Notes under the pieces: model-generated
What the model was told of the DNA's origin: nothing
Database searches by the model: none
The model's input: only the letters and a program-made list of their open reading frames with translations
Shown here: in pieces, positions 4,409 to 61,925 of the stretch
How the letters are laid out: each line of letters opens with the position of its first letter
Numbering within the stretch: the stretch's first letter is position 1
Assembly (NCBI GenBank): GCA_035703525.1
Contig: DASSYA010000026.1
Location: 9,866-73,865, forward strand
Direction: 5' to 3'
DNA: 64,000 bases
DNA from: Gemmatimonadales bacterium
Lineage (GTDB): Bacteria > Gemmatimonadota > Gemmatimonadetes > Gemmatimonadales > GWC2-71-9
Position numbers and translations under genes: made by a program

Positions 4409-4819
4409 TCAGCTCCCGCTGTCGGCCTTGGGTCGGGCCGTGCCCACCAACCGGACGAGCGTGCCACCGGTCGAGTCGGCCTGGACGTGGATCCAGAGCG
4501 GACGATTCGCGTCTGATTCGACGTAAAAGGTGGTCACGCCGCCGGTCGCCGACTCATTGATCAGCCGGTACGGTGGCTTGGCGAGCAACTGGCGGTAGAA
4601 CTCGGCGACTGAGCTGTCCGGCTCCGGCGACTTGAGCTGGAGTTCGAGGGCGTCACTGTTGCCCTGTTTCCCGACGGTCACCCCATTGGGGGGAAACGGC
4701 ACGTTCGGGAAGGCCTCGATCGCCGAAATCGGCTTTTCGGCAGGGTCGCCGTTGGACTTGTCGCCGCATCCGGCAAGGATCAGGCTTGCCAGGGCGAGGG
4801 CGGAGAGATGTCGGATCAT
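4409..4819 (-). CDS. Lipoprotein, unknown function
   Basis: Internal ATG gives MIRHLSALALASLILAGCGDKS, a signal peptide with an LAGC lipobox. The 164-aa track ORF extends upstream without signal-peptide character. Confidence 0.6.
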   Translation of the reverse strand: MIRHLSALALASLILAGCGDKSNGDPAEKPISAIEAFPNVPFPPNGVTVGKQGNSDALELQLKSPEPDSSVAEFYRQLLAKPPYRLINESATGGVTTFYVESDANRPLWIHVQADSTGGTLVRLVGTARPKADSGS

Positions 4820-4917
4820 CCGGGAACCGTAGCGCGGTGGGATCGTGTGGGCAAGCGGACGCGTTGCCGAGGTACCGCCGAATCCGCTATGATCCCGCTT
4901 CATACAGGAGGCTGCCC

Positions 4918-5667
4918 ATGGCGGGCCACAGCAAGTGGAAGTCGATCAAGCACAAGAAGGCGATCACCGATTCGCGGCGGGCCGCCAGCTGGACCAAGGT
5001 GATCCGGGAGGTCACCGTTGCGGCGAAGGCCGGCGGCGGTGACCCGGGGATGAATCCGCGGCTCCGCAAGGCAATTGACGATGCGAAGTCGGTCAACATG
5101 CCGAACGAGAACATCGATCGTGCCGTCAAGAAGGGGACCGGCGAGCTCGAGGGGGCCAGCTACGAAGAGGTCACCTACGAGGGCTATGGCCCCGGCGGGA
5201 CGGCGCTCCTGATCGAAGGGTCGACCGACAACCCGAACCGGACGGTCGCGGAGATTCGTCACGCCTTCTCGCGCAACGAAGGCAACCTGGGTGCCACCAA
5301 CTCGGTGGCCTGGATGTTCGAGCGGCTCGGACAGATCGTGATCCCCCGTGGCCCACAGTCTGAGGATAAGGTGATGGAGGATGCCCTCGAGGCGGGGGCG
5401 AGCGATTTCGAGGTGGATGGCGATCTGTTCGTGGTGAGCACGGAGCCGACCGCGTTCCATGCGGTGATCGATGCCCTCACTGGCCGCGGCTACACGATCG
5501 AGTCGTCGGAACTCGCGATGATCGCACAGAATCTCGTCCAGCCGGAGCCGGCGGATGCGGAAAAGGTCCTGAAGCTGATCGAGGTGCTCGAGGAGCTGGA
5601 CGACGTGTCCAAGGTCTTCACCAACCTCGACTTCGACGCGATCGAACTGGAGGAGGCCGGGACCTGA
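4918..5667 (+). CDS. yebC: YebC/PmpR family DNA-binding transcriptional regulator
   Basis: MAGHSKWKSIKHKKAITDSRRA...NPRLRKAIDDAKSVNMP is the canonical YebC N-terminus. A caggagg RBS precedes the ATG at 4918. Confidence 0.9.
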   Translation: MAGHSKWKSIKHKKAITDSRRAASWTKVIREVTVAAKAGGGDPGMNPRLRKAIDDAKSVNMPNENIDRAVKKGTGELEGASYEEVTYEGYGPGGTALLIEGSTDNPNRTVAEIRHAFSRNEGNLGATNSVAWMFERLGQIVIPRGPQSEDKVMEDALEAGASDFEVDGDLFVVSTEPTAFHAVIDALTGRGYTIESSELAMIAQNLVQPEPADAEKVLKLIEVLEELDDVSKVFTNLDFDAIELEEAGT

Positions 5668-8015: not shown

Positions 8016-9045
8016 ACGACGCTGGCGCACCAGCGACTTCGACTACCACCTCCCCGATGACCTGATCGCGCAGACGCCCAGCCCCACCCGCGGTGCCTCG
8101 CGCCTGCTCGTGCTGGACCGCGCGACCGGGGCATGCACCGATCGCGAGTTCGCCAGCCTGCTCGACCTGATCCCGCCCGGCGACCTCCTTGTCCTCAATT
8201 CGACCCGCGTCCGCCATGCCCGGTTCGTCGGGACACGTGACGGGGGGGGGAAGGCCGAGATCCTCCTGCTCCATCCGATCGACGGGGAGCGATGGCTGGC
8301 CATGGGCCGGCCCGGGCGCGCCCTTCGGGTCGGGCGCGTGGTGCACCTCGGCGACGCGGCCGGGCTCGAGATCCTCGCGGTGCGTGAGGATGGCTTCCGC
8401 GAGGTGCGGTTCGTCGGCGGCGAAGCCGGCGACCTGATCGATCGGTTCGGGCAGTTGCCGTTGCCGCCATACATCACGCGCGAGCCGGATGCCTCGGACG
8501 ATGATCGCTACCAGACCGTGTTCGCCGAGCGGGTCGGCAGTGTCGCGGCGCCGACCGCCGGTCTGCATTTCACCGAGACCCTGCTCGGCCGACTCCGGCA
8601 GCGGGGCGTGACCATCGCCTCGCTCGATCTCGAGGTCGGCCCCGGCACCTTCCGGCCGATCGAGCACGACGACCCCACGGAGCATCCGATGCACGAAGAG
8701 CGCTACGAGATCCCGGAGACGCTGGCCCGGGCGGTGCAGGACGCCAGACAGCGTTCCGCCGGCATCTGGGCGGTCGGGACCACGGTCGTGCGGGCCCTCG
8801 AGAGTGCCGCCGATCCGGCCGGCGGAATCCAGCCCGGCCGCGCCGCCACGCGCTTGATGATCGTCCCCGGTCATACCTTTCGGGTGGTCGATCACCTGAT
8901 CACCAACTTTCATCTCCCCCGCTCGACCCTGCTCATGCTGGTCGCCGCGTTGGCCGGACATGAGCGCACCATGCAGGCCTACCAGCACGCCGTCGCCGCA
9001 CGGTACCGGTTCTACAGTTACGGCGACGCCATGTGCATCATCTGA
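8008..9045 (+). CDS. queA: S-adenosylmethionine:tRNA ribosyltransferase-isomerase QueA
   Basis: Internal ATG of ORF 7528..9045. [24 protein letters not shown]...LPLPPYI...DRYQTVFA...[10 protein letters not shown]. Overlaps the ruvB stop. Confidence 0.9.
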
Positions 9046-9055
9046 GGAGAGGTCC

Positions 9056-9574
9056 ATGTCTCATCCACCGCCCAGTACCCCGGGCTACGTCGACGAAACC
9101 CTCGCCCTGCTGGGCGACCGCGACCCGGTCGCCGTGCTCGAGGAGATGCCCGACTGGTTGACGACCCACCTCGACGATCTCGAGGAGTCGGTCCTCGGGG
9201 TCGCCGAAGGGCCCGGCAAGTGGTCGATCACCCAGGTGCTCGCGCACCTCGCGGACACCGAGCTCGCCTTCGGGTGGCGGATCCGGCTGCTGCTCACCGC
9301 CGACCGCCCGCCGCTCACCGGTTTCGACGAGGGCAAGTGGGTCACACGCTTCGACTATGCCAGCGCCGATCCGGCCGAGGCGTTTCACGCCTTCGCGATG
9401 CAGCGGAGCTGGAACATGCGCGTCTACCGGAGCATCACGCCTGACGACCGGACGCGCGTCGGCATCCATTCCGAACGGGGCGAGGAATCGGTCGATCGGG
9501 TCCTCCGGATGATCGCCGGGCACGACCTCAGGCATCGTCGCCAGATCACGCGCATCATCCAGGCCATTACCTAG
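9056..9574 (+). CDS. DinB-family (DinB_2-like) metal-dependent protein
   Basis: WSITQVLAHLADTELAFGWRIRLLL...IAGHDLRHRRQI shows the His-containing four-helix DinB pattern. Inserted between queA and tgt. Confidence 0.7.
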   Translation: MSHPPPSTPGYVDETLALLGDRDPVAVLEEMPDWLTTHLDDLEESVLGVAEGPGKWSITQVLAHLADTELAFGWRIRLLLTADRPPLTGFDEGKWVTRFDYASADPAEAFHAFAMQRSWNMRVYRSITPDDRTRVGIHSERGEESVDRVLRMIAGHDLRHRRQITRIIQAIT

Positions 9575-10708
<1,134 letters not shown>

Positions 10709-10996
10709 ATGGGGAGCAATCCCGCGCTGATGCTGGTGCTGCAGTTCGTGGCCATCGGCCTCGTATTCTATTTCCTGATCATTCGCCCGCAGGGGGTCGC
10801 CCGCAAGAAGGCCGCCGCGATGCTGGCCGCGATCAAGAAGAACGACCTCGTCACCACCGCCGGTGGCGTGATCGGCAAGGTCAAGCAGGTGCGCGATACC
10901 GAACTCGTGATCGAGAGCGGCACCGCGGAACTGGTGATCGATCGCAGCCGCATCATCCGGGTCGGGGACATCAACACGCCGGGGACCATGAGCTGA
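10709..10996 (+). CDS. yajC: Preprotein translocase subunit YajC
   Basis: 95 aa. LVFYFLIIRPQ...LKKNDLVTTAGGVIGKV. Confidence 0.85.
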   Translation: MGSNPALMLVLQFVAIGLVFYFLIIRPQGVARKKAAAMLAAIKKNDLVTTAGGVIGKVKQVRDTELVIESGTAELVIDRSRIIRVGDINTPGTMS

Positions 10997-11532
10997 TGGC
11001 GATCCTGCCCGTGCACTACCTCGGTCAGCCCGTCCTCCGTGAGGTGGCGGCGCCGATCGAGACGATCGACGCGGAGCTGCAGCAACTGGTCGCCGACATG
11101 TACGAGACCATGGACGCCGCCCTGGGCGTCGGCCTCGCCGGCAATCAGGTCGGGGTCGCGCGGCGGGTGGCCGTGATCGATACGGAGGAACACCGCTTCG
11201 TGATGATCAATCCGCGGGTGACGTCGCGCACGGGCAAAAAGAGCGCCGACGAGGGCTGCCTCTCCGTGCCCGAGGCATTCGGCGAAGTCACCCGCGCCGC
11301 GGAGATCACCCTCGAGGCGACCGATCTCGACGGGAATCCATTCACGCTCGACCTCTCGGGGCTGACCGCCCGCGCGGTGCAGCACGAGATCGACCATCTC
11401 GACGGGATCATGTTCATCGATCACCTGTCGCCGCTCAAGCGTCAACTGCTGGTCAAGCGCTGGAAGAAGGAGTACCGGGACGCCGGGCCGACCTGGACGC
11501 CCTCGCTCGAGGAGTCGGACGCGGGCGCCTGA
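10996..11532 (+). CDS. def: Peptide deformylase
   Basis: Internal ATG of ORF 10384..11532. GVGLAGNQVG...EGCLSVP...QHEIDHLDG motifs. Confidence 0.9.
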   Translation: MAILPVHYLGQPVLREVAAPIETIDAELQQLVADMYETMDAALGVGLAGNQVGVARRVAVIDTEEHRFVMINPRVTSRTGKKSADEGCLSVPEAFGEVTRAAEITLEATDLDGNPFTLDLSGLTARAVQHEIDHLDGIMFIDHLSPLKRQLLVKRWKKEYRDAGPTWTPSLEESDAGA

Positions 11533-12458
11533 TGCGGATCGCGTTCTTCGGCACGCCCGACTTCGCGGTCCCCTCCCTCCAGGCCCTCCTGGCCACCGAT
11601 CACGAAGTGGTGGCCGTCGTCACCCAACCCGACCGGGCCCGCACGCGGTCGCACTCGACGCTTCTCCCCCCCCCAGTCAAGGTCACGGCCGACGACGCCG
11701 GCATCCCGGTGTGGCAGCCCGAACGCCCGCGTGGCGACGCGTTCCTCGATCACCTCCGAGCGCTGAATCTCGACCTCGGCGTCGTCGTGGCGTACGGTCA
11801 CCTGCTCCGTCCCGACCTGCTGGCCATCCCGCGACTCGGGCTGGTGAATGTCCACGCCTCGCTGCTGCCGCGCTGGCGGGGCGCCGCACCGATCCACTGG
11901 GCCATCAAGGCCGGGGACGCCCGGACCGGTGTCTCGATCATGCAACTGGAGGCGGGCCTCGACAGCGGTGGGACGTGGCTGCAACGCAGCACGCCGATCG
12001 GTCCGATCGACACCACTGGCACGATGTTCGAGCGGCTCGCCCGGCTCGGTGCCGACGCCCTGGTCGAGGCGTTGCCGGGCATCGCAGCTGGCACACCACC
12101 CACCCCGCAGGATCCGGCCGGCGTCACGCTGGCACCGAAACTGGACCGCGATGCCGCCCGCGTCGACTGGCACGCCGGCGCGGTCCAGGTGAGTGGTCAC
12201 CTGCGGGCGATGGATCCGTTCCCTGGCGCATGGACGACGCACCACGGAACCGACATCAAGCTGTTCGGGGCGCGCGCGAGTGCGGAACTTTTCGTTGCTC
12301 GACCGGGTTCCATGGACGGCGATGGCAACGAGATCGTGGTCGCGTGCGACACGGGAGTCGTCCGCATCGCGGTGGTCCAGCCGGCCGGGAAACGCCGGAT
12401 GCCGGCCGGAGACTGGTTTCGGGGCATCCCCGAGGCCTGGCCCAGGGAATTCGTGTGA
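11532..12458 (+). CDS. fmt: Methionyl-tRNA formyltransferase
   Basis: [16 protein letters not shown]...VVTQPDR...[16 protein letters not shown]. Confidence 0.9.
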
Positions 12459-13102
12459 GCAGATGGCCGCGATTGCTCGCCTACCTCGACGCGCGGGTGG
12501 CCGCGCACGAGGATCTCGGACTTCGGCTGGCGGCCGTCGCGGCCGCAGGGCCCGAGGTGGGACTCGTCGCACGGCAGCCGGGCGCGAGCACCGACACGCT
12601 GACCGCGCTCGCGGCGCGCTGCGTCGCCAACGCCACGCCACCAGCCGCGGAGGTCTGGGTGACCGGCCGCGTCGATGTCGCGCTGGCGGTCGGTGCCGAC
12701 GGCGTGATTCGTCGCTCGGAGGATCTCGCGATCGCCGCGATGCGGCTGGCGGTCGCCCGCAGCACGGCCAGGCGGCCACAGCTCCGCCATATTGCCTCGG
12801 TACATTCGGTGGTCGAGGCCGAGGCGGCCGCCCGGGATGGCGCGGAGGCGCTGATCGTCGGGACCATCTGGCCGTCGGCATCGCATCCCGGCGGACCGAC
12901 GGGTGGATTGGCGCTGCTCGAGGGCGCGGTGCGGACCGGGCTCCCTTGTTATGCGATCGGTGGCATCACGCCCGATCGCGCACTGGAGGCCCGGGCACAC
13001 GGTGCCCACGGCGTCGCCGCGATCGGTGCGGTGTGGGACCAGCCGGACAGTTACCAGGCGGCGTTGGCGCTGCTGGGACCTGAAGTGAGAAGTGAGAGGT
13101 GA
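12455..13102 (+). CDS. Thiamine-phosphate synthase-like protein (ThiE/TenI family)
   Basis: GTG at 12455 overlaps the fmt stop. ...[31 protein letters not shown]...[32 protein letters not shown]. The last residues (EVRSER) and the stop codon lie inside the heptad array. Confidence 0.65.
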
Positions 13103-13236
13103 GAAGCGAGAAGCGAGAAGCGAGAAGCGAGAAGCGAGAAGTGAGAAGTGAGAAGCGAGAAGCGAGAAGTGAGAAGCGAGAAGCGAGAAGCGAGAAGTGA
13201 GAAGCGAGAAGCGAGAAGCGAGAAGTGAGAGGTGAG
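13083..13236. repeat. Tandem heptanucleotide array A: 22 x AAG(Y)GAG, that is (GAGAAGY)n, purine-rich on the + strand
   Basis: Direct reading shows 22 consecutive 7-nt units. Only the C/T position and two AGGTGAG end units vary. Lies between the thiE-like gene and thiS. Confidence 0.95.
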
Positions 13237-13280
13237 AACGCGTTGAGCGTGCAACGGTACCACCAGCAAGGAGTGGCGTC

Positions 13281-13481
13281 ATGCAGTTGACCATCAACGG
13301 CGCGCCGCGCACGGTGCGTGACGCCGAGAGTGTCGAGCAGCTGCTCGCGGAGCTGGAGCTGGACCCGCGGGCGGTGGTCGTGGAACTGAATCGCGAGATC
13401 GTCCGTCGACCAGCGTTGGCCGCGACGGCGATTCGGGACGGGGACACCGTCGAGATCGTGCACTTTGTGGGGGGGGGCTGA
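13281..13481 (+). CDS. thiS: Sulfur carrier protein ThiS
   Basis: 66 aa ending in ...[10 protein letters not shown]. Confidence 0.85.
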
Positions 13482-14246
13482 ATGCTGGAGATCGGCGGCA
13501 CCACATTCTCGTCGCGGCTGCTGGTGGGCACCGGGCGCTATCGCACCAACGCGGAGATGGTCGAGGCGATCGACGCCAGCGGGGCGGAGGTCGTCACGGT
13601 GGCGGTGCGGCGCATCTCGCTCGACCGGGCGGATGACACCGGCATCCTGCATCATCTCTCGCCCGAGCGCTATTTCCTGCTCAGCAACACCGCCGGCTGC
13701 TACACCGCGGACGACGCCATCCGCTATGCGCGGCTGGCCCGCGAGGCGGGTTTCAACGATTTCGTCAAGCTCGAAGTGATCGGGGACCAGGACACGCTCC
13801 TGCCCGACACGGCCGGGCTGCTCGAGGCGACGCGAGTGCTCGTGGGCGAGGGCTTCAAGGTGATGGCCTACACCAACGACGACCTCATCATGGCGCTCCG
13901 GCTCGAGGACGCCGGAGCCGTCGCCGTCATGCCGTTGGCCTCGCCTATCGGCTCCGGACTCGGCATGATCAATCCGTTCGCGATCCGGACGATCAAGGCA
14001 CGGCTCAGCGTACCGGTGATTGTCGATGCCGGTGTCGGCACGGCAAGCGACGCCTGCCTGGTGATGGAACAGGGTGTCGACGGCATCCTCATGAACACCG
14101 CACTCGCGGCCGCCGACGAACCGGTGCGGATGGCCCGGGCGATGCGGCTCGCGGTGGAGGCGGGCCGCGAGGCGTACCTCGCCGGCCGGATGCCCCGGCG
14201 CGAAGTGGCGGTGCCCTCCAGTCCGACCGCCGGGATGATCGCCTGA
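13482..14246 (+). CDS. thiG: Thiazole synthase ThiG
   Basis: LLVGTGRY...VTVAVRR...NTAGC...VKLEVIGD...VMPL.SPIGSG.G...VDAGVG. Confidence 0.9.
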
Positions 14247-15544
14247 TCGATTCCGGCCTCGGTCCGCGCCGCGCCGCACTCGGCATTCTCCTCGCGGCCC
14301 GGGGTGGCACACCGTTCGACGCGGCACTCGAGCGCGGGTTGGCCGGCTTGCCCGATGCCGATCGTCGGCTCGCGCACGAACTCGCCGCCGGTGTCTTGCG
14401 AAGTGGCGATGCGCTCGACGCGATCATCGCCCCGCTCCTCACGCGTGGTATCGACCACACCGACCCCAGCGTCCTCGAGATCCTCCGGCTCGGCGTCTAT
14501 CAGCTCAGGGAACTCGAACGGGTGCCCGCCCATGCAGCCGTGGCCACCGCCGTCTCGCTGACCCGCGAACGCGTCGGCGAGCGACTGACCGGTGTGGTCA
14601 ACGCGGTACTCAGGCGGGTCACACGCCTCCCGCCTGAGACGCGGGCCGCTACTGACACCGATCTGGCGACCCGATATTCCCATCCGGCATGGCTGGTCGA
14701 TCGCTGGCTCGCCCGATTCGGGGTCGATGACACCACAGCGTTGCTCGAATGGAACAACGCGCACCCGATGCTCGTGGTCCAACCGACGGATGGCGATCTC
14801 GTGGCACTCGCGACCAGCTTCGACGCCGCGGGCGTCCGAAGCTTCCCGGCGCCCTTCGATGCCGGCCTCATCGTCGGGGAGACCCGTCCCGAACGGCTGC
14901 CGGGTTTCGGCGACGGCCGCTTTTTTGTCCAGGATCCGGCCCAGGCGCTCGTGGTCCGGTTCGCCGGAACCCCCGAAGGGGCAACGGTGTTCGATGCCTG
15001 CGCCGCCCCCGGCGGCAAGACCCTCGGACTCGCCCGAGAAGCCGATCTGGTGATCGCCGGCGAGCTCTCCCGTCGCCGGATTCCACGCCTCCGCGAGAAC
15101 CTGACTCGAAGTGGTGTCACCAACGTTCGACTCGTCCATGCCGACGCGCTGCATCCCCCCATCCGGCCAGTCGACCTGATGCTCCTCGACGCGCCATGCC
15201 TCGGGACCGGGACCTTCGCCCGCCACCCCGATGCCAGGCTGCGTGTCCGCCCCGGTGCGCTCACCCGCCTCGCGCGGGAACAGGCCCAACTCCTCGACGC
15301 CGCTGCCGATCGAGTGCGGCCGGGTGGCGTGCTATGTTACGCCACATGTTCGCTGGAACCCGAGGAAAATGCGATCCAGATCGATCACTTCCTGGCACGG
15401 CACCCGACGTTTCGTCGGGCACCGGTGGTGGGGCTGGATCTGCCCATGACTGACGCGGGTGATCTCGAGATCCTGCCACAGCGCGATGCCATGGACGGTG
15501 CGTTCGCCGCGCGACTGGTTCGCCAGTCTGCCCCGGAGCCCTGA
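14243..15544 (+). CDS. rsmB: 16S rRNA (cytosine-C5)-methyltransferase RsmB/Sun family
   Basis: C-terminal [10 protein letters not shown]...DAPC.GTG...YATCSL methyltransferase motifs. The NusB-like N-terminal homology (RRAALGILL...[14 protein letters not shown]) starts upstream of the first canonical start (TTG 14339). The only candidate there is CTG 14243, overlapping the thiG stop. Confidence 0.75.
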
Positions 15545-21795: not shown

Positions 21796-23910
21796 CTACT
21801 CGCGCGTGGCGACTTCCTCGGCGCTCGACTCGACCACCGTCGCACGCAACCGCTCAACCTCCGCGCGCAGTGCCGCCAGGTCGGCCTCCATCTGTTCGAG
21901 CGAGCGCAACACCGCGCCCTCGACGCCGGGACCGGCTGGACGCGGTGCCAGCCCCGGCAACGGCGCACTCGCGGCGCTCGTGCCCGCGACGGCGGGAGCA
22001 GCGACCGCGGTCCGTCGCCGGGCGATCCCGAAGATCCAGATGAGCGCCACCAGCGCCAGCGCCACCAGCACCCCCTGCGCCAGCAACGACTCGACCGTCG
22101 GATAGATGCCCAATGCGGCGATCCGCGGCCAGCCCGGCAGGACCGTCGTCCCGACCACGCCGCCCGCCTGCAACTCGGCGATCCCCTTCCCCGCGAAGAC
22201 GAACGCGGTGTAGTAGAGGAACGCGCTGGTGGCACCGAAGAACGGCCGGAGTGGCAGCTTCACGCCGAATCGGTTGATCAGGATATAGACCACCGCGAGC
22301 AGGGCGCCACCGACCAGGATCCCGGCAACGACAGGTCCGACGCTGCCGCCGGTCGGGCCGCCCGAGACCAGCAGGGCCTTGTAGAAGAGCACCGTCTCGA
22401 ACCCCTCGCGATATACCGCCAGGAAGGCGGCAGAGGCGAGCGCGAAGGCCGACCCGCCGGTCACGGCAACCTGGACCCGTTCCTTGACGAACGCCGTCCA
22501 CTTCTGGACCTCCATCTTCGAGAGCAGCCAGTAGCTCACGTAGAAGAGCACCACCACCGCCACCAGCATCGTGATTGCCTCGAGCACCTCCTGGTGCGCA
22601 GGCGAAAGCTGGAACACCGTCTCGAGCAGCACGGCGGTGAGCACCGACAGCGCCACAGCCGCCCCGACCCCGATGTGAATGTCACGCTTCCGGTGACTCG
22701 CCCCGATCTTGACCAGGAAGGCGATCAGCGCGCCGATGATCAGGATCGCCTCGAGGCCCTCGCGGAGCATGATCATCAGCGACTGCACGAAGAGATTGAG
22801 GGGCGAGGTCTCGTCGGCCACCACCCGCTCGGCGCGTTCGAGGCCGGCATAGAGCTCGCCGGCCACGGCGCCGAGCTCGTCGCGCGTCGCTCCCCCCCCC
22901 ACGCGAGTGCGGAGGGTCGCGAACGAGGCCTCGAGATCGGTGGCCAGCGCGGGGTTCTTGGCGCGCACCGTCCGTTCGACCTGCTCGAACGCCAGGTAGG
23001 CATCGAAGGCGGCGGTGATCGCGGCGTCGTGCTTCCCCTCGCGCGCCAGCTTGCCTGATTCGTCGACGTGCCGGCGCACCGTCGCGAAGATCGCGGCCCG
23101 CGCCGCGCCATCATCGGCGTCCATCTGGTAGGAGCGCACCGCCGACACGGTGGCCGGCGTAGCCCCGTCGCCGAGCGCCGCGAGCAGCTGGCTGTCGTTC
23201 ATCGTCGCGACGGTGCCGAAATCCCGGAGTGCCGCGGGGACATCCCCGGCCGGTTCAGGTTGACGGAGTGTCGACGCGTAGAGGGCAAGGGCCCAACGAT
23301 CGGCCGCCGGCATCCGGCTCTCGTACGCCGGCATCGCGGTCCCGGCCACCCCGATGGTGATCCGCTGGTAGAAGGCGAGCGGAGTCACATCGGCCAGAGC
23401 CAGATGGTCGGTCAGGTCGGCGGGCGCGGGGTCGAGGCCGCGGCCCGCAAGACCATCACCGCGGCCGAGCGTGCCATGGCAGGAGGCGCACTGCGCCTGG
23501 TACAGTTCGGCGCCGCGCGCGAGGCTGGGGGTCCGGATGGGGATCTCGACCAGGGCGATGCCGAGGGAGCCACTCAAGTGTGTGGTCAATCGCTTGACCG
23601 CCGCATCGATCGAATCGGGCGACGCGGTACCGCTCACGAAGGCGAGCGCCGCGTCGAGATGCACCAGCGCCGAATCGACGACCGCGTTCGGCAGCAACGC
23701 CGCCGCTCGCCGAGCCTCGGTCAGGAACAACCGGGCTTCGTCGACCTCGGCAGGCATCACCACCCGACCATCGACCACACCGATGCGGTATTCCTGCGCC
23801 GCCAGTTCGGCCGAGGCCGCGATCCGCCGTGCAGTCGCGACGGAATCCGGGCCGGGAGCCGGACTGAACACTGTGAGGAGGAACGCCGCCTGAACGAGAA
23901 TCATTCTCAA
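21796..23910 (-). CDS. Cytochrome c domain fused to an FTR1-family high-affinity iron permease
   Basis: CASCHG haem-binding motif in the N-terminal periplasmic part. Two REGLE-type motifs (REGLEAILIIGALIAFL, REGFETVLFY) lie in the multi-TM part. C-terminal charged coiled-coil-like tail. Confidence 0.8.
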   Translation of the reverse strand: MRMILVQAAFLLTVFSPAPGPDSVATARRIAASAELAAQEYRIGVVDGRVVMPAEVDEARLFLTEARRAAALLPNAVVDSALVHLDAALAFVSGTASPDSIDAAVKRLTTHLSGSLGIALVEIPIRTPSLARGAELYQAQCASCHGTLGRGDGLAGRGLDPAPADLTDHLALADVTPLAFYQRITIGVAGTAMPAYESRMPAADRWALALYASTLRQPEPAGDVPAALRDFGTVATMNDSQLLAALGDGATPATVSAVRSYQMDADDGAARAAIFATVRRHVDESGKLAREGKHDAAITAAFDAYLAFEQVERTVRAKNPALATDLEASFATLRTRVGGGATRDELGAVAGELYAGLERAERVVADETSPLNLFVQSLMIMLREGLEAILIIGALIAFLVKIGASHRKRDIHIGVGAAVALSVLTAVLLETVFQLSPAHQEVLEAITMLVAVVVLFYVSYWLLSKMEVQKWTAFVKERVQVAVTGGSAFALASAAFLAVYREGFETVLFYKALLVSGGPTGGSVGPVVAGILVGGALLAVVYILINRFGVKLPLRPFFGATSAFLYYTAFVFAGKGIAELQAGGVVGTTVLPGWPRIAALGIYPTVESLLAQGVLVALALVALIWIFGIARRRTAVAAPAVAGTSAASAPLPGLAPRPAGPGVEGAVLRSLEQMEADLAALRAEVERLRATVVESSAEEVATRE
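23896..23908. promoter_or_regulatory. 6-1-6 palindrome GAGAAT-c-ATTCTC overlapping the FTR1 start codon (Fur-box-like)
   Basis: Perfect inverted repeat seen directly. It resembles the tGAtAAT-N-ATTaTCa half-site arrangement of Fur boxes and sits at an iron permease start. Confidence 0.3.
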
Positions 23911-41797: not shown

Positions 41798-42703
41798 ATG
41801 AATGGCATCGAACCCGACTGGACCAGTACCCCGACAGCACTCGCGGCCATCACCGCCACCCCCGGCGCCATCCCGACCACCGACACCGTGCTCCGTGTCA
41901 CCGGTCCGGGTGCCGTGGCCTGCGTGCAGGGCATCCTCACCAACGATATCGAGAAGCTCACGCTCCCCGGCCTGGTGCACGGGGCGGTGCTCACCCCCAA
42001 GGGGATGATCATCACCACGCTCTGGTGCGGTCGCGATGCGGACGGGATCACCCTCATCGTCCCCGCCGAGGGACGCGAAGCACTCGTGACGCTGCTGGCG
42101 CGCAGTTTCCCGCCCCGGCTCGCCAAGGTCAGCGCGGCGCCGACCGGCACGACCGTCTGGTGGCTGGTGGGGGGCGGCACGTCCCCGGACGGCGGCACGA
42201 TGCTGGTGCCCAGCGGCCTGGCGCCCTTCGAGGCCCTCTGGATCGGCGAGTCTGGCCGGACTCCGGGCGGCGGACATCCCGCGCGACCCGTGTGGCACGC
42301 CGAGGCACTCCGCATGCTGGGCGGCTGGCCCCGGGTCGGCCGCGAGATCGATGACAAGACCCTGCCCCAGGAAGTGCGGTTCGACGAACTCGCGAGTGTC
42401 GCCTATGACAAGGGATGCTACGTCGGGCAGGAGACGGTGGCGCGCCTCCACTTCCGCGGTCATGCCAACCGCACCCTGCGGGCGGTGGTCGGTCGGGGTG
42501 CCATCCCCGCCGCGGATGCGGTCGAAGACGGGGGGGGGAAGGTCGTTGCGCAACTCGCGTCGCGGGCCGTGATCGGGGACCACTGGTTGGCGCTCGCCCG
42601 GGTCCGTCGTGAAGTCGCGAGTGGTGACATCGTGCATGTGGGTGGGCGGGAGGCCACCATCCGCGACCTGCCACTCACCGGCGCCATGATTGCGGGATGG
42701 TGA
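41798..42703 (+). CDS. ygfZ: YgfZ/GcvT-like folate-binding protein
   Basis: ACVQGILTNDI...KGCYVGQETVARLHFRGH. ATG at 41798 lies after the sigma-factor stop. Confidence 0.75.
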   Translation: MNGIEPDWTSTPTALAAITATPGAIPTTDTVLRVTGPGAVACVQGILTNDIEKLTLPGLVHGAVLTPKGMIITTLWCGRDADGITLIVPAEGREALVTLLARSFPPRLAKVSAAPTGTTVWWLVGGGTSPDGGTMLVPSGLAPFEALWIGESGRTPGGGHPARPVWHAEALRMLGGWPRVGREIDDKTLPQEVRFDELASVAYDKGCYVGQETVARLHFRGHANRTLRAVVGRGAIPAADAVEDGGGKVVAQLASRAVIGDHWLALARVRREVASGDIVHVGGREATIRDLPLTGAMIAGW

Positions 42704-44705: not shown

Positions 44706-45323
44706 TTAGCCCCTGCTCCCCACCGCCGCCACCACCACCTCCGCACTCCGTTCCAGCCCCAGCCAACCGGTATTGAGCGTCAGGTGGTAGTTCCGCGCGT
44801 TGTCCCAGGTTCGGTTGTACCATTGCCGATGATACCGTGCCCGATTGGCGTCAACGGTCTTCAACTCCTTGAGCGCCTCGTCGACCGTGATCGAGAGCCG
44901 CTCGGCGATGATCCGGGCACGATGATCGACGGGTGCCACCAGTCGGACGTGGAGCGCATCACTCCGTCGGCCGAGCACGGCAACGGCGGCGCGGCCGACC
45001 ATCACCGCGTGGCCCTCGGCGCTGGCATCGGTCACCACCTGCTCGGTGAGCTTGACCAGCCGTGCCTCCACTGCCTCGGGGACGGCCAGCGGCTCGGGTC
45101 CCAGGAGTTCCGGAGTGGCCAGTGCGAGCGCGCGTGACAGTCGCTCGATGAACGACGGCCCGCGTTCCTCGCGTCGTGCCACGTCGGCTGGCGACATGCC
45201 TGCCAACTCCGCCACCGTCTCGACTACCTGATTGTCGACCAGTCGCCAGCGCAGCGACTCGGCCACGAGTCGAGCGACCGAAGAGCCGCCAGCGCCGTAT
45301 TCACGCGAAATCGTGACGAACAT
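44706..45323 (-). CDS. Cytidylate kinase-like family protein
   Basis: MFVTISREYGAGGSSVARLVAE.L.W...D is the family signature. Confidence 0.75.
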   Translation of the reverse strand: MFVTISREYGAGGSSVARLVAESLRWRLVDNQVVETVAELAGMSPADVARREERGPSFIERLSRALALATPELLGPEPLAVPEAVEARLVKLTEQVVTDASAEGHAVMVGRAAVAVLGRRSDALHVRLVAPVDHRARIIAERLSITVDEALKELKTVDANRARYHRQWYNRTWDNARNYHLTLNTGWLGLERSAEVVVAAVGSRG

Positions 45324-46575
45324 GCTCTCCCTCCACGGGTTCGAGGAGCCGACGACGGAGTGCCAGGGCACCGAGCAGGGCGATCACGCCGCTCACGGCG
45401 ATGGCGCGGGGGGCGCCGAAGTGTTCGGCGATGTAGCCGGCCTGGAAGGCCCCGATCGGGGCCAGACCCAGCACCACGAACGAATACACGGCCATCACCC
45501 GTCCGCGCATCTCGGGTGTCGCCTCGAGCTGGAGTGAGGTCGCGGTCGAGATCCCGGTGGTCGCCATGGCGGCGCCGGCGACGGCGAGGCAGAACATCGC
45601 GGCCGTCAGACCGGTGAGCGCCGAGAGGACGACGGTGGCGAAGGCGAGGAGCACCGCCCCGATCGAGGCCATGCGGCCCCGGCGGATCCGTCGCCCGACG
45701 CCGCCAACGATGATGGCGCCGAGTGCGGCACCAATGCCGATCGCCGAGGTCAGGGCGCCGTAACCCGAGGCCCCGGTGCCGAGCACGTCGCGGGCGTAGA
45801 CCGGCAGGATCGGGATGAACGAGATCGCGAACACCGACACCAGCACCATCTGGATCGCGAGCGCCGCGAGGGTCGGCCGCGCCGCGATGAACTGCATCCC
45901 CGAGAACACCGAGGGGCGATCGCGTCGTGGCATCACCGGACTCCGGTGTTCGATCCGCTTGAGGCCGATCAGCACTGCGATGTAGCTCACGGCATTGACC
46001 GCGAAGCAGGCGCCGGGGCCGGCGATGGCGAGGATGATGCCCGCGATGGCCGGACCGATCACGCGGGCGAGGTTGTAGATCGTCGAGTTGAACGCGGCCG
46101 CGCTGACCAGGTCCTCGGGTGGCACCAGTTCGACCAGGTACGACTGTCGGGCCGGCACCTCGAACGCGGTGGCGAGACCGAACGCGAGGGCGAGGCCCCA
46201 GATCCAGCTGATGGTCACCCCACCGCTCAGGGTCAGGTACGCCAGCACGGCCGCCTCGATCAGCATGACCGACTGGAGCGCCATGATGAAGCGTCGCTTG
46301 TCGACCCGATCGGCGACCACGCCGCCGTAGAGGGTGAAGAGCAGGATCGGCAGGGTATTGAGGGTGGTGACCAGGCCGACATCGAACGGCGAGCCGGTCA
46401 TCTCGAGCACCAGCCAGCCGAGCGCGATGGTCTGCATCCAGGTCCCGACCATGGAGATCGTCTGACCTGCGGCGAAGCGTCGGAAGTCGGGGTGGCGGAG
46501 CGCGCGGAGCGGGCCGTCGAGCGTGGCGGCGCGGAACTGTGCGGTGACGTGGTCGAGGCGAGGGTGTGGGGTCAC
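45301..46575 (-). CDS. MFS transporter (EntS/MFS_3-like)
   Basis: 424 aa, about 12 TM segments. FRRFAAGQTISMVGTWMQ..A.GWLV. GTG start. Confidence 0.85.
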   Translation of the reverse strand: MTPHPRLDHVTAQFRAATLDGPLRALRHPDFRRFAAGQTISMVGTWMQTIALGWLVLEMTGSPFDVGLVTTLNTLPILLFTLYGGVVADRVDKRRFIMALQSVMLIEAAVLAYLTLSGGVTISWIWGLALAFGLATAFEVPARQSYLVELVPPEDLVSAAAFNSTIYNLARVIGPAIAGIILAIAGPGACFAVNAVSYIAVLIGLKRIEHRSPVMPRRDRPSVFSGMQFIAARPTLAALAIQMVLVSVFAISFIPILPVYARDVLGTGASGYGALTSAIGIGAALGAIIVGGVGRRIRRGRMASIGAVLLAFATVVLSALTGLTAAMFCLAVAGAAMATTGISTATSLQLEATPEMRGRVMAVYSFVVLGLAPIGAFQAGYIAEHFGAPRAIAVSGVIALLGALALRRRLLEPVEGEHVRHDFA

Positions 46576-46588
46576 GAAGGGAATTTAG

Positions 46589-46687
46589 CTCGCCGCTCCC
46601 GTCTCGCCTCTCGCCTCTCGCTTCTCGCTTCTCGCCTCTCGCTTCTCGCCTCTCGCTTCTCGGCTTCTCACTTCTCACGTCTCACGT
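46589..46687. repeat. Heptanucleotide array B: about 14 x CTCGCYT/CTCACKT (reverse orientation of array A on the + strand)
   Basis: Direct reading. Fills most of the 124-nt divergent intergenic region between the MFS (-) and VWA (+) genes. Confidence 0.95.
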
Positions 46688-46699
46688 CTAGCTTGAGAG

Positions 46700-47986
46700 A
46701 TGCGCTACACCACCTGGTCCCGGTACGTCGCCGGCCTCGCCGATCAGCTCAATCTGCAATCGCTGCTCGACCAGCTCGGGGACTTTCTCCTCCAGTCGGG
46801 CTTCACCGACATGCCCGCATGGTGGGGTGGCGAGCCCGGGGATCCCAATGAGGGGCGCTCGCTCGAGGACCTGCGGGGCGCGATCCTCAACGCCCTGATC
46901 GAGTCCGGACAACTCACGCCCGAGATGCTCCGCTTCCTCCGGAACGGCACGACCGGCGACCTCGATCGCGATGAGTCACTCAAGCAGGAGATCGCCCAGC
47001 TCCTCGACCAGATCGTGGCACGCCTGATGGAGGAGGGCTATCTCGACCTGAAAGGACCCGGCGGCCAGAGCATCCCCGCCGACCAGCTCCCGGGCGGCAG
47101 GGAACGCGCCGCGGCCCAGACGGTCCACTTCGATCTCCGCGAGAAGGGCGCCGACTTCCTCGGCTACAAGACTCTCCGCGATCTGCTGGGAGCGATCGGC
47201 AAGTCAGGGCTCGGCGCGCACGAGACTCCCCACCTCGCCAGCAGCATCGAGAGCGACGGCGGCTCGCGCCCCTGGGAGTTCGGTGATGTGCCCAACCTCG
47301 ATGTCCCGGCCACGCTCCTCAACGCCATCGGCAAGCACGGTATCGGCACGCCGATCCCGCTCGACTATGCCGACCTGATGATCACCCAGAGCGAGTATCG
47401 CTCCTCGGCCGCCACGGTGATCATGCTCGACTGCTCGCACTCGATGATCCTCTACGGCGAGGACCGCTTCACGCCAGCCAAGAAGGTGGCACTCGCCCTC
47501 ACCCACCTGATCCGCACACAATTTCCCGGCGACACGGTACGCGTGGTGCTCTTTCATGACGGCGCCGAGGAGGTGCCGCTCGGGGCGCTCGGCAATGTGC
47601 AGGTCGGGCCGTATCACACCAATACGGCGGGGGGCATCGCGCTCGCGCGTCGGATCCTCGCCGGCGAGCGGAAGGAGATGAAGCAGATCATCATGATCAC
47701 CGACGGCAAGCCGACGGCGCTGACACTCCCCGATGGCCAGGTCTACATCAACTCGGGTGGATTCGACCGGCGTATTCTCCGGGAAACTCTTGCCGAGGTC
47801 GGGGCGTGTCGGCGGAGCAACATCGTGATCAACACCTTCATGCTGGCCCGCGAGCGGATGCTGGTCGAATTCGTGATGGAAGTCGCGCGTATCTGCCGCG
47901 GCAAGGCGTACTTCGCCACCCCGATGTCACTCGGCCAATTCATCCTGATGGACTTCCTGAAGGGCAAGACGCGACGGGTGGGGTGA
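46700..47986 (+). CDS. VWA-domain protein (CoxE-like; usual partner of ChlI/MoxR-type ATPases)
   Basis: [10 protein letters not shown] (MIDAS DxSxS) ...[11 protein letters not shown]. Confidence 0.8.
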
Positions 47987-48030
47987 GGGCAGATCGCGAG
48001 CACGACCTGACGGTCGCGCCTAAGAACCGA

Positions 48031-48091
48031 CGCTTCTCACTTCTCACTTCTCACTTCTCACTTCTCGCTTCTCGCTTCTCGCTTCTCGCCC
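48031..48091. repeat. Heptanucleotide array C: about 8.5 x CTCACTT/CTCGCTT, same orientation as array B
   Basis: Direct reading. Overlaps the 3' end and stop codon of the L,D-transpeptidase gene. Confidence 0.95.
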
Positions 48092-49740
48092 AACGCCTTC
48101 ACCAGCCGCGCGTCGAGCCCGTACGGGTCATCCGCGAAGCGCACCGTGCCGTCACCGTCCACGGTCGCGGTCACATACCAGAGCACGACCGGCACCTTCC
48201 GCTTGAGTCCGGCCGTCGTCGGCTTGTCACCCATCATCGCGTCCTGGATCTTCTCGGGTGTCCACTTCGGCTGGTCATCGAGCAGCCATGCCGCCAGCCG
48301 TGCCGGCTCGTCGACCCGGACGCAACCGTGCGAGAAGGCCCGTCGATCACGCCCGAAGAGTGATCTGGCCGGTGAATCGTGCAGGTAGATGTCGTCCTTG
48401 TTCGGGAACAGGAACTTGACCCGGCCGAGCGAGTTGAGCGGACCCGGTCGCTGGCGCAGGAAGAGCGTCCCGGCCCGCACCGCCTCGAGCCGCTCTGGCG
48501 TCGGCGGCAGGGGCGTGGCACTGTCGGAGTGACTCGGGACGATCTCGTACTGGTTGACGGCCAGATACGTCGAGTCGACCAACGCCGTGTCGACCAGCTC
48601 ACGCGCCGCCAGCGTGGCCGGGATCTGCCAGTACGGCCGGAACACCAGGTACGAGATCGAGTCGGCGAAGATCGGGGTCGCGTGTTCCCCTTGCTGGCCG
48701 ATCACCACCCGCATCCCGAAGGTGGGCTCCGCATGGGCGTGCTCGTAGGCGGCCAGTTCGTAGAACGGCAGGTTCACCACCACCGCCCGGGAATCGCCCA
48801 TCTCGGGGAACCAGCGCAGCCGCTCCATCGCGAGCTCCAGCTGGCGGACCCGCACCGCCATGCCCACGTTCAGGGCCGCGATTGTCCCCCCCCCAAGGAT
48901 CCCGTCGGCGTTGAGACCGTGCCGCGCCTGGAACCGCCGCACCGCGGCCACGGTCAGGGAGTCGTACGACCCGAGCGAGTCCGTGCCTCCTCCGAGATCC
49001 CCGAACGTGCGGAGTCGGTGGCGCAGCGCGGTCAACCCGGGCCAGGTGGAGTCGCCCGGGGTGACCTTGCCCGACCGTCCCGCAGCAGGCACGACCGGGA
49101 GGCTGCCCGTGTCGGCCATCCCCCGGTACCGGGCCAGCGCCGTCACCAGCAGGCGATACTCCGGGTAGTCGGGCACCACCGAGGCAATGACCCCACCGAA
49201 ACCGCCGGCCGCGCGTGCGCTGTCGACCAGCGCGGCATAGTCGCGTGCGCGACGCGGCGCATCGAATCGGTAGTCCTGGCTCCGGGGGTCGACCCGACCC
49301 GCGCCGAGCGCGCGCAGGAATCGGAGGGCACTGCGCGAGGCCCCGACATCAAGCGTGGCGAATGCCACCGGCGTCTGCACACTGTCCAGTGCTCGACGCT
49401 GGGCCGTCAGCGACTCGGCGTCATAGTCGGCGGGGTCGAGGCCATGCTGTCCGGCATCGCGCAGCGCGGCCAGCAGCGAGTCGAGCACCGGACGGGGGGT
49501 GGTGGTGTTGAACCAGACCAACTGGTCGGTTTCATGGGCGTAGAGGGTCCGCATCTCCCGGGCTTCCGGCCGTGCGGTCGTATCGGTCGGGACGAGGGCG
49601 GCCACCGCGGCATCCACGGCCTGCCTCACCTCGATCGAGGCCGGTTTCTCGGGGGCCTCGAGTGCCGCACGCGCGGCACGGGCGCTCTCCCCCCCCTTCG
49701 AGCAGCCGAGGAGACAGGCCACGAGGACGGCACGACGCAT
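48058..49740 (-). CDS. L,D-transpeptidase (YcbB-like: PG-binding domain plus YkuD domain)
   Basis: AVRRFQARHGLNADGILG (PG_binding_1) and IYLHDSP...SHGCVRV (YkuD catalytic motif). The tail EKREARSEK and the stop are encoded by array C. Confidence 0.85.
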   Translation of the reverse strand: MRRAVLVACLLGCSKGGESARAARAALEAPEKPASIEVRQAVDAAVAALVPTDTTARPEAREMRTLYAHETDQLVWFNTTTPRPVLDSLLAALRDAGQHGLDPADYDAESLTAQRRALDSVQTPVAFATLDVGASRSALRFLRALGAGRVDPRSQDYRFDAPRRARDYAALVDSARAAGGFGGVIASVVPDYPEYRLLVTALARYRGMADTGSLPVVPAAGRSGKVTPGDSTWPGLTALRHRLRTFGDLGGGTDSLGSYDSLTVAAVRRFQARHGLNADGILGGGTIAALNVGMAVRVRQLELAMERLRWFPEMGDSRAVVVNLPFYELAAYEHAHAEPTFGMRVVIGQQGEHATPIFADSISYLVFRPYWQIPATLAARELVDTALVDSTYLAVNQYEIVPSHSDSATPLPPTPERLEAVRAGTLFLRQRPGPLNSLGRVKFLFPNKDDIYLHDSPARSLFGRDRRAFSHGCVRVDEPARLAAWLLDDQPKWTPEKIQDAMMGDKPTTAGLKRKVPVVLWYVTATVDGDGTVRFADDPYGLDARLVKALGEKREARSEK

Positions 49741-52522: not shown

Positions 52523-52575
52523 GAAAAGCGAGAAAGCGAGAAGGCCTGTACGGGCGCAACATGTTGCGTCCGTAC
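52523..52575. terminator. Short GAGAAAGCGAGAAGG remnant of the heptad motif plus a 13-bp hairpin (GTACGGGCGCAAC/GTTGCGTCCGTAC)
   Basis: Read directly between convergent thrE and the TIM-barrel gene. The outer GCGAGAAAGCG pairs with CGCTTTCTCGC at about 52592-52602. Confidence 0.6.
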
Positions 52576-52604
52576 CCGGCCGCGCGCGGAGCCGCTTTCT
52601 CGCG

Positions 52605-60505: not shown

Positions 60506-60679
60506 ATGGCGGAACGCAAGGCGACCCTCGTCCGGCTCGACCCGGCGCTGCATGCGGCACTGCAGCGCTGGGCCGCCGACGAACTGCGCTCATTCAATGC
60601 ACAGGTGGAGTATCTGCTGTCGCGGGCGCTCAAGGAGCACGGGCGAACGCCACGCGCGCCGAGGAAGGATGAGGGATGA
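60506..60679 (+). CDS. Ribbon-helix-helix (Arc/MetJ-like) small DNA-binding protein, 57 aa
   Basis: Not in the ORF track (under 60 aa). MAERKATLVRLDPALHAALQRWAADELRSFNAQVEYLLSRALKEHG fits a beta-strand plus two-helix RHH pattern. Lies 3 nt after the SPFH stop. Confidence 0.6.
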   Translation: MAERKATLVRLDPALHAALQRWAADELRSFNAQVEYLLSRALKEHGRTPRAPRKDEG

Positions 60680-60708
60680 AGGATCGGCAACCCCCTCATT
60701 CCTCATCC
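60667..60708. terminator. GGATGAR heptad hairpin element (family 2), copy 2; bidirectional terminator
   Basis: GGATGAGGGATGAAGG-atcggcaacc-CCCTCATTCCTCATCC, 14 of 16 bases paired. Spans both convergent stop codons. Confidence 0.7.
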
Positions 60709-61863: not shown

Positions 61864-61867
61864 TCCT

Positions 61868-61910
61868 CGATGAAGGATGACGGATGGAGGATGAAGGCTG
61901 ATCCTCCATC
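61868..61910. terminator. GGATGAN heptad hairpin element (family 2), copy 3
   Basis: CGATGAA GGATGAC GGATGGA GGATGAA, with a perfect 10-bp stem GATGGAGGAT/ATCCTCCATC, between convergent genes. Confidence 0.7.
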
Positions 61911-61925
61911 GTCGATCATGCGTCG

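Follow-up and report, generated by a model that had tools for sequence, protein, structure and literature searches.

A variable-number GAGAAGY heptanucleotide array between thiE and thiS of a Gemmatimonadales bacterium

Heptanucleotide repeats arranged in tandem and dispersed in intergenic DNA are known from the cyanobacteria Calothrix and Anabaena as short tandemly repeated repetitive (STRR) sequences. Simple sequence repeats (SSRs) with units of 1–5 nt, located in reading frames or between promoter elements, form the contingency loci of Haemophilus and Neisseria and switch genes on and off. The present work concerns an array of 22.4 head-to-tail GAGAAGY units (Y is a pyrimidine; hereafter array 1) located between thiE and thiS in a 64,000-nt stretch of the genome of a Gemmatimonadales bacterium (hereafter the window; GenBank contig DASSYA010000026.1, positions 9,866–73,865), together with two further arrays of the same motif in this window (arrays 2 and 3). 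The STRR sequences differ from GAGAAGY in motif and phylum. Array 1 has in common with the contingency SSRs a presumably slippage-driven change of unit number, but its units lie outside functional coding sequence, except for the last codons of thiE, so that a change in their number shifts no frame. Array 1 belongs to a class already known from bacteria, the long simple sequence repeats (LSSRs) with heptameric units. We estimate with a probability of roughly 60% that it is a variable-number repeat of this class generated by slippage and tolerated at a gene boundary; apart from keeping two formerly coupled genes at a distance, it probably has little effect.

In the accounts given by PMC4679880 and PMC4692102, the survey of Mrazek et al. 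(2007) describes LSSRs as repeats of 5–11-nt units exceeding chance expectation, with heptanucleotides being the commonest and the distribution being sporadic, and proposes polymerase slippage as their origin. Array 1 agrees with these accounts in unit size and excess length, and Gemmatimonadota are not among the genomes that they discuss. The closest described families are the GGGAATC heptamers of Xanthomonas and the GGGGAYT heptamers of Nostoc PCC 7120, which form 186 and about 90 dispersed, mostly intergenic arrays per genome, respectively (Rehm et al. 2015, PMC4692102). Each Xanthomonas genome contains 70–75 inverted pairs of such arrays, the array length varies among close relatives, and no function has been identified (PMC4692102). 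TAACTGA direct repeats of marine Beggiatoaceae, cyanobacteria and some Bacteroidetes are an example of a motif common to distant phyla (MacGregor 2015, PMC4679880). A first-pass annotation of the window, made from the sequence alone, knew of no described function for such arrays; the families above have a like anatomy, also without an assigned function (PMC4692102, PMC4679880). No paper linking Gemmatimonadota with heptamer repeats was found in the literature searched, and a literature search for the motif strings returned unrelated primer matches only.

The GAGAAGY arrays resemble the Xanthomonas and Nostoc heptamers in their 7-nt unit, in the positional rule described below, in the occurrence of inverted pairs and in the variation of length and sequence among relatives. 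The published set also includes intra-operon examples (pecE-pecF; PMC4692102), as is the case for array 1. Unlike these motifs, GAGAAGY has no G-tracts, carries TGA in all frames and belongs to another phylum. As it lacks G-tracts, the positional rule shared with the published families cannot depend on G-quadruplexes. The TAACTGA repeats are likewise dispersed heptamers at gene boundaries with stop codons on the forward strand and an open reverse strand (PMC4679880). However, they comprise 2–6 units mostly just upstream of start codons in sense orientation, whereas GAGAAGY arrays reach 22 units in the window and mostly begin at stop codons.

Tandem Repeats Finder places array 1 at 13082–13238 with a period of 7, 22.4 copies, 92% matches and a score of 237, in agreement with the 154-nt heptanucleotide tract reported initially and refined here to 13083–13238. 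A 28-nt higher-order period over the same region outscores the period of 7 (263 vs 237). The repeats are far beyond chance: a two-unit pattern with at most one mismatch is matched 35 times in the window, where dinucleotide-preserving shuffles predict 0.05. Variant units were correctly noticed at both ends of the array, and GAGAGGT is seen at each. Position 5 of the unit therefore also varies (A/G), contrary to the statement that only the Y position does. The interior consists of amplified GAGAAGC units in a T-C-C-C pattern with the 28-nt period. A quasi-symmetric order of T and C units had been proposed; symmetry is present in weak form only (12 of 21 positions match on reversal of the unit string read by eye), and the pattern is better described by internal amplification of four-unit (28-nt) blocks. 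The purine content of the array is 85.7%. The purine strand contains 9 GTG codons as well as 9 stop codons, the latter occurring in each of the three frames, and the complementary strand has 0 stop and 0 start codons. This strand asymmetry was recognized in the first-pass annotation, and the stop-free complementary strand explains the spurious minus-strand open reading frame (ORF) at 13051–13269.

The reading frame of thiE enters array 1 for 19 nt, and the repeat units thus encode the C-terminal residues EVRSER (6 codons) and the TGA stop codon (13100–13102); the array has overrun the earlier stop of thiE and provides the present one. On the other side the array ends, as annotated, 44 nt before the thiS ATG at 13281, and the Shine-Dalgarno sequence AAGGAG of thiS sits 7 nt before this codon. 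As the two genes flanking array 1 point in the same direction and the stop codon of the first one falls within it, array 1 is an intercistronic insert and not an operon leader.

The number of units in array 1, for which a check of copy-number polymorphism had been proposed, varies both between and within species. Three Logan short-read contigs of the same species (L120 and L238 from SRR30616678, and L237 from SRR30566757) are 99.5–99.9% identical to the window and end inside array 1 from both sides: L120 begins at 13201 of the window, while L237 and L238 stop a few units into the array. The 5' edge of the latter two reads GAAGT-GAGAAGT-GAGAAGT-GAGAGGT and has one GAGAAGT unit more than the window. 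This change swaps the last residue of ThiE only (EVRSEK* in the other samples vs EVRSER* in the window). A related locus with 88–90% nucleotide identity (L236) carries an array at the identical site with the identical left flank, but with 8 units against 22 in the window. All its units are of T or AGG type, its thiE-thiS spacer is 80 nt long, and the whole array lies inside a 22,969-nt contig of the Joint Genome Institute (JGI). The right flank at 13234–13280 is identical to that of L236 at 47 of 47 positions. A special constraint on this 47-nt flank was considered and rejected, because the whole stretch from the 3' part of thiE to the 5' part of thiG is also highly similar. In this stretch (12990–13700, from the thiE 3' end through thiS into thiG) the identity to L236 is 95–100%, compared with 84% in fmt, and third codon positions are identical at 90% in thiS and at 71% in fmt. 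It is possible that this is a recent recombination tract which carried the array.

More distant relatives have other heptamers at the same junction. In L205 (about 84% identity) the thiE-thiS spacer of 171 nt holds a different heptamer in the form of an inverted pair (4744–4930): (GAAGGAT)n covers the thiE stop codon and is followed by a GC-rich core and by complementary (ATCCTTC)n just before the Shine-Dalgarno sequence of thiS. The C-termini KAEG*, KDEG* and QDAG* of ThiE homologues suggest that this type of repeat is present in the L205 sub-clade. L180 carries (GGGAATG)x4 at the junction.

In most relatives the junction is short. A metagenome scan with ThiG returned 80 loci with 76–83% ThiG identity, and the spacer could be measured in 65 of them. 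The distance between the thiE stop and the thiS start is 0–16 nt in 57 of these 65, so no leader of thiSG is expected. Array 1 is lineage-restricted: an array of three GAGARGN units was found in 0 of the 80 loci. Those loci that extend far enough share the gene order def-fmt-thiE-thiS-thiG-rsmB. The absence of a THI-box, or thiamine pyrophosphate (TPP) riboswitch, near thiS had been noted previously and is borne out by Rfam, which at gathering thresholds gives no match of any family over the whole 64 kb, and again none in 9000–14500 when matches up to E ≤ 10 are admitted; 11 related loci are likewise free of matches, at gathering thresholds, to RF00059 (TPP) or to any other Rfam family. The ancestral state is a translationally coupled junction without a leader. 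The proposal that the array replaces an expected leader of thiSG is not compatible with these short junctions in a conserved, riboswitch-free cluster. A link to thiamine genes as such does not hold either, because the other arrays flank MFS, VWA and YkuD genes. As a separate observation, thiE-thiS-thiG is inserted between fmt and rsmB of an otherwise classical def-fmt-rsmB cluster (10996–15544), and this arrangement is kept across Gemmatimonadales metagenome loci without a TPP riboswitch.

The RNA of the array 1 region is no more structured than shuffled sequences (z = 0.17 and 0.54 for the two senses). In the centroid structure the sense-strand array is free of internal pairs, and the antisense RNA has just two short pairings. 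No sigma-70-like promoter consensus was found near arrays 1–3, and no intrinsic terminator (a GC-rich hairpin followed by a U-tract) in 12400–13600 or 46300–48400. The antisense RNA of array 1 has a C:G ratio of 68:13, 45 YC dinucleotides and a centroid energy of −1.4 kcal/mol, with no stable structure. By sequence it corresponds to what Rho requires for loading (a C-rich, G-poor and unstructured RNA of some 80 nt or more) and might act as such a site.

Several other identities of the array were considered and dismissed. A G3 quadruplex is impossible, since four runs of at least three G are required and the longest G run is 2. A phase-variable contingency locus is not plausible, as array 1 lies 3' of the functional thiE sequence and there is no promoter consensus. 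A mobile repeat of the repetitive extragenic palindromic (REP), bacterial interspersed mosaic element or miniature inverted-repeat transposable element type can be set aside because the flanks of arrays 1–3 share nothing; REP-like cores beside arrays were seen only in other metagenome-assembled genomes (MAGs).

Arrays 2 and 3 surround a VWA gene. The first-pass annotation had array 2 with 14 units at 46589–46687; the copy is present, with a corrected extent to 46694 and about 13 units. It fills the 124-nt gap between divergent MFS (45301–46575, minus strand) and VWA (46700–47986, plus strand) genes, running antisense to VWA and within 38 nt upstream of its start. GAGAAGC and GAGAGGC alternate in it, and its purine strand carries units of the T type at the 5' end. 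Array 3, located at 48031–48089 in agreement with the earlier finding of a copy at 48031, provides the C-terminal 9 codons (EKREARSEK) and the stop codon of a YkuD-type L,D-transpeptidase gene (48058–49740, minus strand). Both arrays are absent from the orthologous sites of L202 (81–87% nucleotide identity) and L203: the MFS-VWA gap of L202 is 68 nt long and repeat-free, and the stop codons of VWA and YkuD are 1 nt apart or overlap in the two loci. An unrelated heptamer, (GCGACCC)x4, stands upstream of VWA in L203 (9927–9955), where the window has array 2. Arrays 2 and 3 are direct repeats at a distance of 1.3 kb, and recombination between them could delete or duplicate the VWA gene. With head-to-tail 7-nt units beyond chance, three dispersed arrays in the 64 kb and a unit number and sequence which vary among relatives, the arrays have the properties of LSSRs, and the initial description of a dispersed heptanucleotide satellite placed at gene boundaries is justified by the position of all three arrays at gene ends or in gene gaps.

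The family extends far beyond the window. A scan for four GAGAAGY units with one genome per species gave at least 119 loci. Among the matches listed there are 23 loci from Gemmatimonadota MAGs, several MAGs having more than one, as well as loci from Vibrionaceae, Bacteroidota, Acidobacteriota, Planctomycetota, Verrucomicrobiota and others. Genes around the listed matches were called by a codon-usage model and each array was oriented by its purine strand, which left 82 unpaired arrays for the census. The end closer to a gene is the 5' end of the purine strand in 64 of these arrays and its 3' end in 18 (p = 3e-7). Within 12 nt of an array, 29 gene 3' ends are in the purine sense and 3 in the pyrimidine sense (p = 2.6e-6). 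Junction sequences demonstrate that the stop codon is often the first TGA of the array or is located in a degenerate unit just before it. Arrays of the C type, which are stop-free, likewise begin 1–5 nt past stop codons. All three arrays of the window fit this rule. A stronger version, by which pyrimidine-sense arrays would be forbidden in operons, was abandoned, as 30 purine-sense against 15 pyrimidine-sense unpaired arrays between co-directional genes is too weak a bias. Among very long pure (GAGAAGT)n arrays of unrelated bacteria are one of 43 units in Paenibacillus wulumuqiensis (L119:6864–7164), one of 24 units in Tenacibaculum agarivorans (L109:6690–6857) and one of 25 units in a gammaproteobacterial MAG (L059:7365–7539), the last two beginning 2–3 nt after a stop codon.

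GAGAAGY does not appear to be a special motif crossing phyla. In viral contigs (GAGAAGT)x4 was found in 5 stretches and the control of the same composition in mirror order, (GAAGAGT)x4, in 20, with 3, 0 and 0 stretches for three heptamers of mixed purines and pyrimidines. At most a purine-rich class is favoured, judging from these few controls. A period-7 scan of Gemmatimonadales sequences (533 kb) revealed the lineage-specific heptamers GGGAGCA, GGGAGTC, GGAGCAC, GGGAATC, GGGAATG, GAAGGAT, ACCGAGT and others. The phenomenon probably belongs to the repeat class and not to the GAGAAGY sequence.

Many arrays of the relatives are paired. In other Gemmatimonadota MAGs, often for GAGAAGY itself, a purine array after a stop codon is followed by a loop and by a pyrimidine array before the stop of the convergent gene. 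Inverted pairs of this kind between convergent genes occur in L008, L017, L020, L088 and L093, with predicted energies of −69 to −173 kcal/mol. A further type of pair is located inside rsmB of six loci of the ThiG scan (listed in Table 1), where two complementary four-unit heptamer arrays stand about 235 nt apart. The rsmB arrays are in frame and encode linkers flanking the ferredoxin-like domain. Their motif differs by lineage (GGGAGCA, GGGAGTC, GGAGCAC or GGGTACC) and the two arms stay complementary. In a five-sequence alignment the resulting 25-bp helix is paired at 90.4%, a value attained by 0 of 500 shuffles (which give 73%), and pairing drops to 30–45% when the 3' partners are slid by 1–3 columns. 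Changes on both sides are seen in 18 of 25 pairs; since the units are tandem, the number of independent events behind these compensatory pairs is far smaller. A like pattern could also arise from gene conversion or template switching between the rsmB arms, with no selection for pairing. The rsmB gene of the window has no such arrays. In addition, a GC-rich palindromic core related to GTCAYCCCGAGCGGAGCG / CGCTCCGCTCGGGGTGAC adjoins arrays of differing motifs (L205:4800–4870, L203:9895–9925, L008:6630–6770 and L093:4840–4870), and may be a REP-like element associated with arrays.

The history of array 1 as a slippage-generated repeat can be pictured as follows. The junction would have opened in the ancestor of the sub-clade, and array 1 would have expanded from a short array like the 8 units of L236. 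Replication slippage would have amplified GAGAAGC units in the interior, including blocks of four, leaving older GAGAAGT and GAGAGGT units at the edges. The array would be transcribed together with the rest of the operon and form a purine-rich spacer without structure. It may be tolerated because its sense strand halts any ribosome within a few codons, because this strand is C-poor and so would be a poor Rho loading site, and because no structure is available to mask the ribosome-binding site of thiS. The consequence would be that translation of thiS is uncoupled from that of thiE and relies on its own AAGGAG. A dedicated thiamine-sensing or riboswitch-like role would not be involved.

Some observations weigh against this explanation. 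Arrays nucleate exactly at stop codons, and short arrays of 4–5 units already abut stop codons while having free space on the other side, so that growth until constrained does not explain them. Some array persisted at the thiE-thiS junction down to about 84% identity while its motif was replaced, which pure neutrality does not predict. Heptamer arrays of relatives are often complementary pairs changing in concert; this may speak more for selected pairing, or for some mechanism that homogenises the arms, than for plain slippage. Finally, the copy number of 22 is taken from a single MAG and may not be exact, as short-read assemblers break at the array.

These points bring the paired arrays of the relatives into consideration. 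It is conceivable, with a low probability in our estimate, that purine/pyrimidine heptamer pairs are a selected class of long, fast-evolving hairpins, and that solitary arrays such as array 1 are their by-products or trans partners. The arms keep pairing in spite of motif replacement (at the thiE-thiS junction and in rsmB), the purine arm always comes first, and the elements begin exactly where translation stops, which would be compatible with such a class. A related and similarly doubtful explanation makes array 1 the orphan arm of a hairpin composed of a purine array, a loop and a pyrimidine array, which would serve as a terminator, an RNase III site or an mRNA stabiliser; its pyrimidine arm would have been lost or never gained, and the remaining arm over-expanded. 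The inverted pairs between convergent genes in the five loci named above, the hairpin architecture of L205 at the very same site, three short hairpins of this type in the window, the co-variation of both rsmB arms and the 70–75 such pairs per Xanthomonas genome all speak for it. However, there is no complementary array near array 1 within the window, L236 as the closest array-bearing relative is also without a pyrimidine arm, and there is no organism with a demonstrated function of paired arrays. Array 1 might instead be a tunable intercistronic spacer whose unit number sets the ratio of thiE to thiSG through re-initiation distance, through GAGAGG/GAGAAG motifs holding the 30S subunit, or through mRNA decay. 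Its exact position between cistrons coupled in relatives and the different unit numbers between and within species would suit such a device, and the GAGAGGTGA units resemble a Shine-Dalgarno sequence. This is nevertheless rather unlikely, because the unit number is not conserved, the repeats also occur at unrelated genes in all gene-orientation contexts, and thiS has its own canonical AAGGAG.

The remaining explanations find much less room. Array 1 RNA might pair in trans with the VWA mRNA through the pyrimidine-rich RNA of arrays 2 and 3 and so couple the decay of the two transcripts. The sequences are perfectly complementary for tens of nucleotides, both arrays 2 and 3 present the pyrimidine strand in the sense of VWA, and cis pairing of such arrays is predicted elsewhere. 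Pairing in trans is nevertheless very unlikely: L202 lacks arrays 2 and 3 although its VWA protein is 95% identical (81–87% at the DNA level), there is no conserved set of partners, and the arrays, probably many per genome, would offer no specificity. Among the functions put forward in the first-pass annotation (copy-number-dependent expression control, a platform for binding protein or RNA, and pairing in trans), none is backed by a positive finding. The chance that non-B DNA (triplex/H-DNA or a G-quadruplex) acts on replication or transcription is also very small. One strand does consist of 85.7% purines, but the pyrimidine at every seventh base breaks the homopurine tract, leaving G runs of at most 2, purine runs of at most 6 and a best mirror symmetry of 73% over 30-nt arms, so the triplex potential suggested at first is poor. 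In addition, arrays stand on both strands of a window whose GC skew is flat and weakly negative throughout; array orientation therefore does not track replication. That the array substitutes for a riboswitch or acts as a regulatory leader of thiSG is highly improbable. Such a role would fill the place of the TPP riboswitch missing from the window, but 57 of 65 junctions measure 0–16 nt, 0 of 11 related loci have a TPP riboswitch, and array 1 is unstructured, varies in length from 8 to 22 units and has no promoter consensus. An assembly artefact, foreseen by the first-pass annotation as a refutation, can be practically discarded: short-read assemblers do break at array 1, but its edges were found in two other sequencing runs and the complete 8-unit version lies inside the JGI contig of L236.

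For annotation, the tract is to be treated as a tandem repeat rather than as a leader with a regulatory role. Both thiE and the YkuD-type gene owe their real C-terminus and stop codon to the repeats, whose complementary strand yields false ORFs. Arrays of this kind also break short-read assemblies of the lineage. The family-level rule and the co-varying pairs are somewhat more notable than array 1 itself. The data suggest that the placement rule and its cause are independent of quadruplexes, the property stressed in published work, and the co-varying pairs of relatives provide a concrete handle on whether these abundant repeats do anything. Should a selected class of hairpins exist, a rule common to motifs capable and incapable of G-quadruplex formation across phyla would point to a general mechanism, as yet undescribed, tied to translation or Rho.

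The genes surrounding array 1 were identified by Pfam scans. They are all located on the plus strand and tightly packed in the order def, fmt, thiE, array 1, thiS, thiG, rsmB, a PASTA-domain gene and rpe (Table 1). Exact-sequence look-ups of the ThiE, VWA and Fmt proteins of the window gave no match.

Table 1. Coordinates of the genes, arrays and hairpins discussed (window positions, except for the last row, where positions refer to the loci named).
Feature	Position	Strand	Remarks
def	10996–11532	+	Pfam
fmt	11532–12458	+	Pfam
thiE, thiamine-phosphate synthase	12473–13102	+	Pfam TMP-TENI
Array 1	13083–13238	+	22.4 GAGAAGY units, GAGAGGT variants at both edges
Unique spacer, array 1 to thiS	13239–13280	+	holds thiS Shine-Dalgarno sequence AAGGAG, 13268–13273
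thiS	13281–13481	+	same orientation, downstream of array 1
thiG	13482–14246	+	same orientation, downstream of array 1
rsmB	14339–15544	+	Pfam scan order
Array 2	46589–46694	− (purine strand)	about 13 units, 85–87% matches, one 1-nt insertion
Array 3	48031–48089	− (purine strand)	8.4 units; between convergent VWA and YkuD-type L,D-transpeptidase genes
Element first taken for a GAGAAGY remnant	52523–52606		terminator-like two-level hairpin, −47.6 kcal/mol, z = −5.0 (region 52518–52606)
Inverted pair GAAGGAT/GAGGGAT with ATTCCTC/ATCCGTC	60661–60716		z = −2.05 (60655–60735)
Inverted pair (GATGAAG)n with ATCCTCCATCGTC	61863–61925		z = −3.2 (61860–61930)
rsmB array pairs of relatives	L156:5103–5372, L196:5103–5375, L201:4797–5066, L174:5106–5375, L200:1985–2254		L158 duplicates L156

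The three short hairpins of the window are all located between convergent ORFs and built from related purine-rich units. A remnant of GAGAAGY had been reported near 52523. A repeat does exist there (52525–52542), but its unit is 8 nt long (AAAGCGAG x2.2) and it forms the 5' arm of a hairpin with the 3' arm CGCTTTCTCGC. In this element the purine arm GCGAGAAAGCG directly follows the TAG stop of a ThrE-family gene, an inner 12-bp hairpin comes next, and the pyrimidine arm just precedes the stop of the convergent gene. The other two hairpins are composed of a second purine-rich type of heptamer (GAAGGAT and GATGAAG). The purine arm of the second hairpin overlaps the TGA stop (60677–60679) of a 57-aa ORF (60506–60679). 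The third one exactly fills the gap between the convergent ORFs 61402–61863 (plus strand) and 61926–62609 (minus strand).

The window also contains runs of nine G (or nine C), which are slippage-prone: one at 13470–13478 and others within 8229–8258, 22875–22904 and 42524–42551. The one at 13470–13478 lies just upstream of the thiS stop codon and accounts for the C-terminal Gly residues of the protein.

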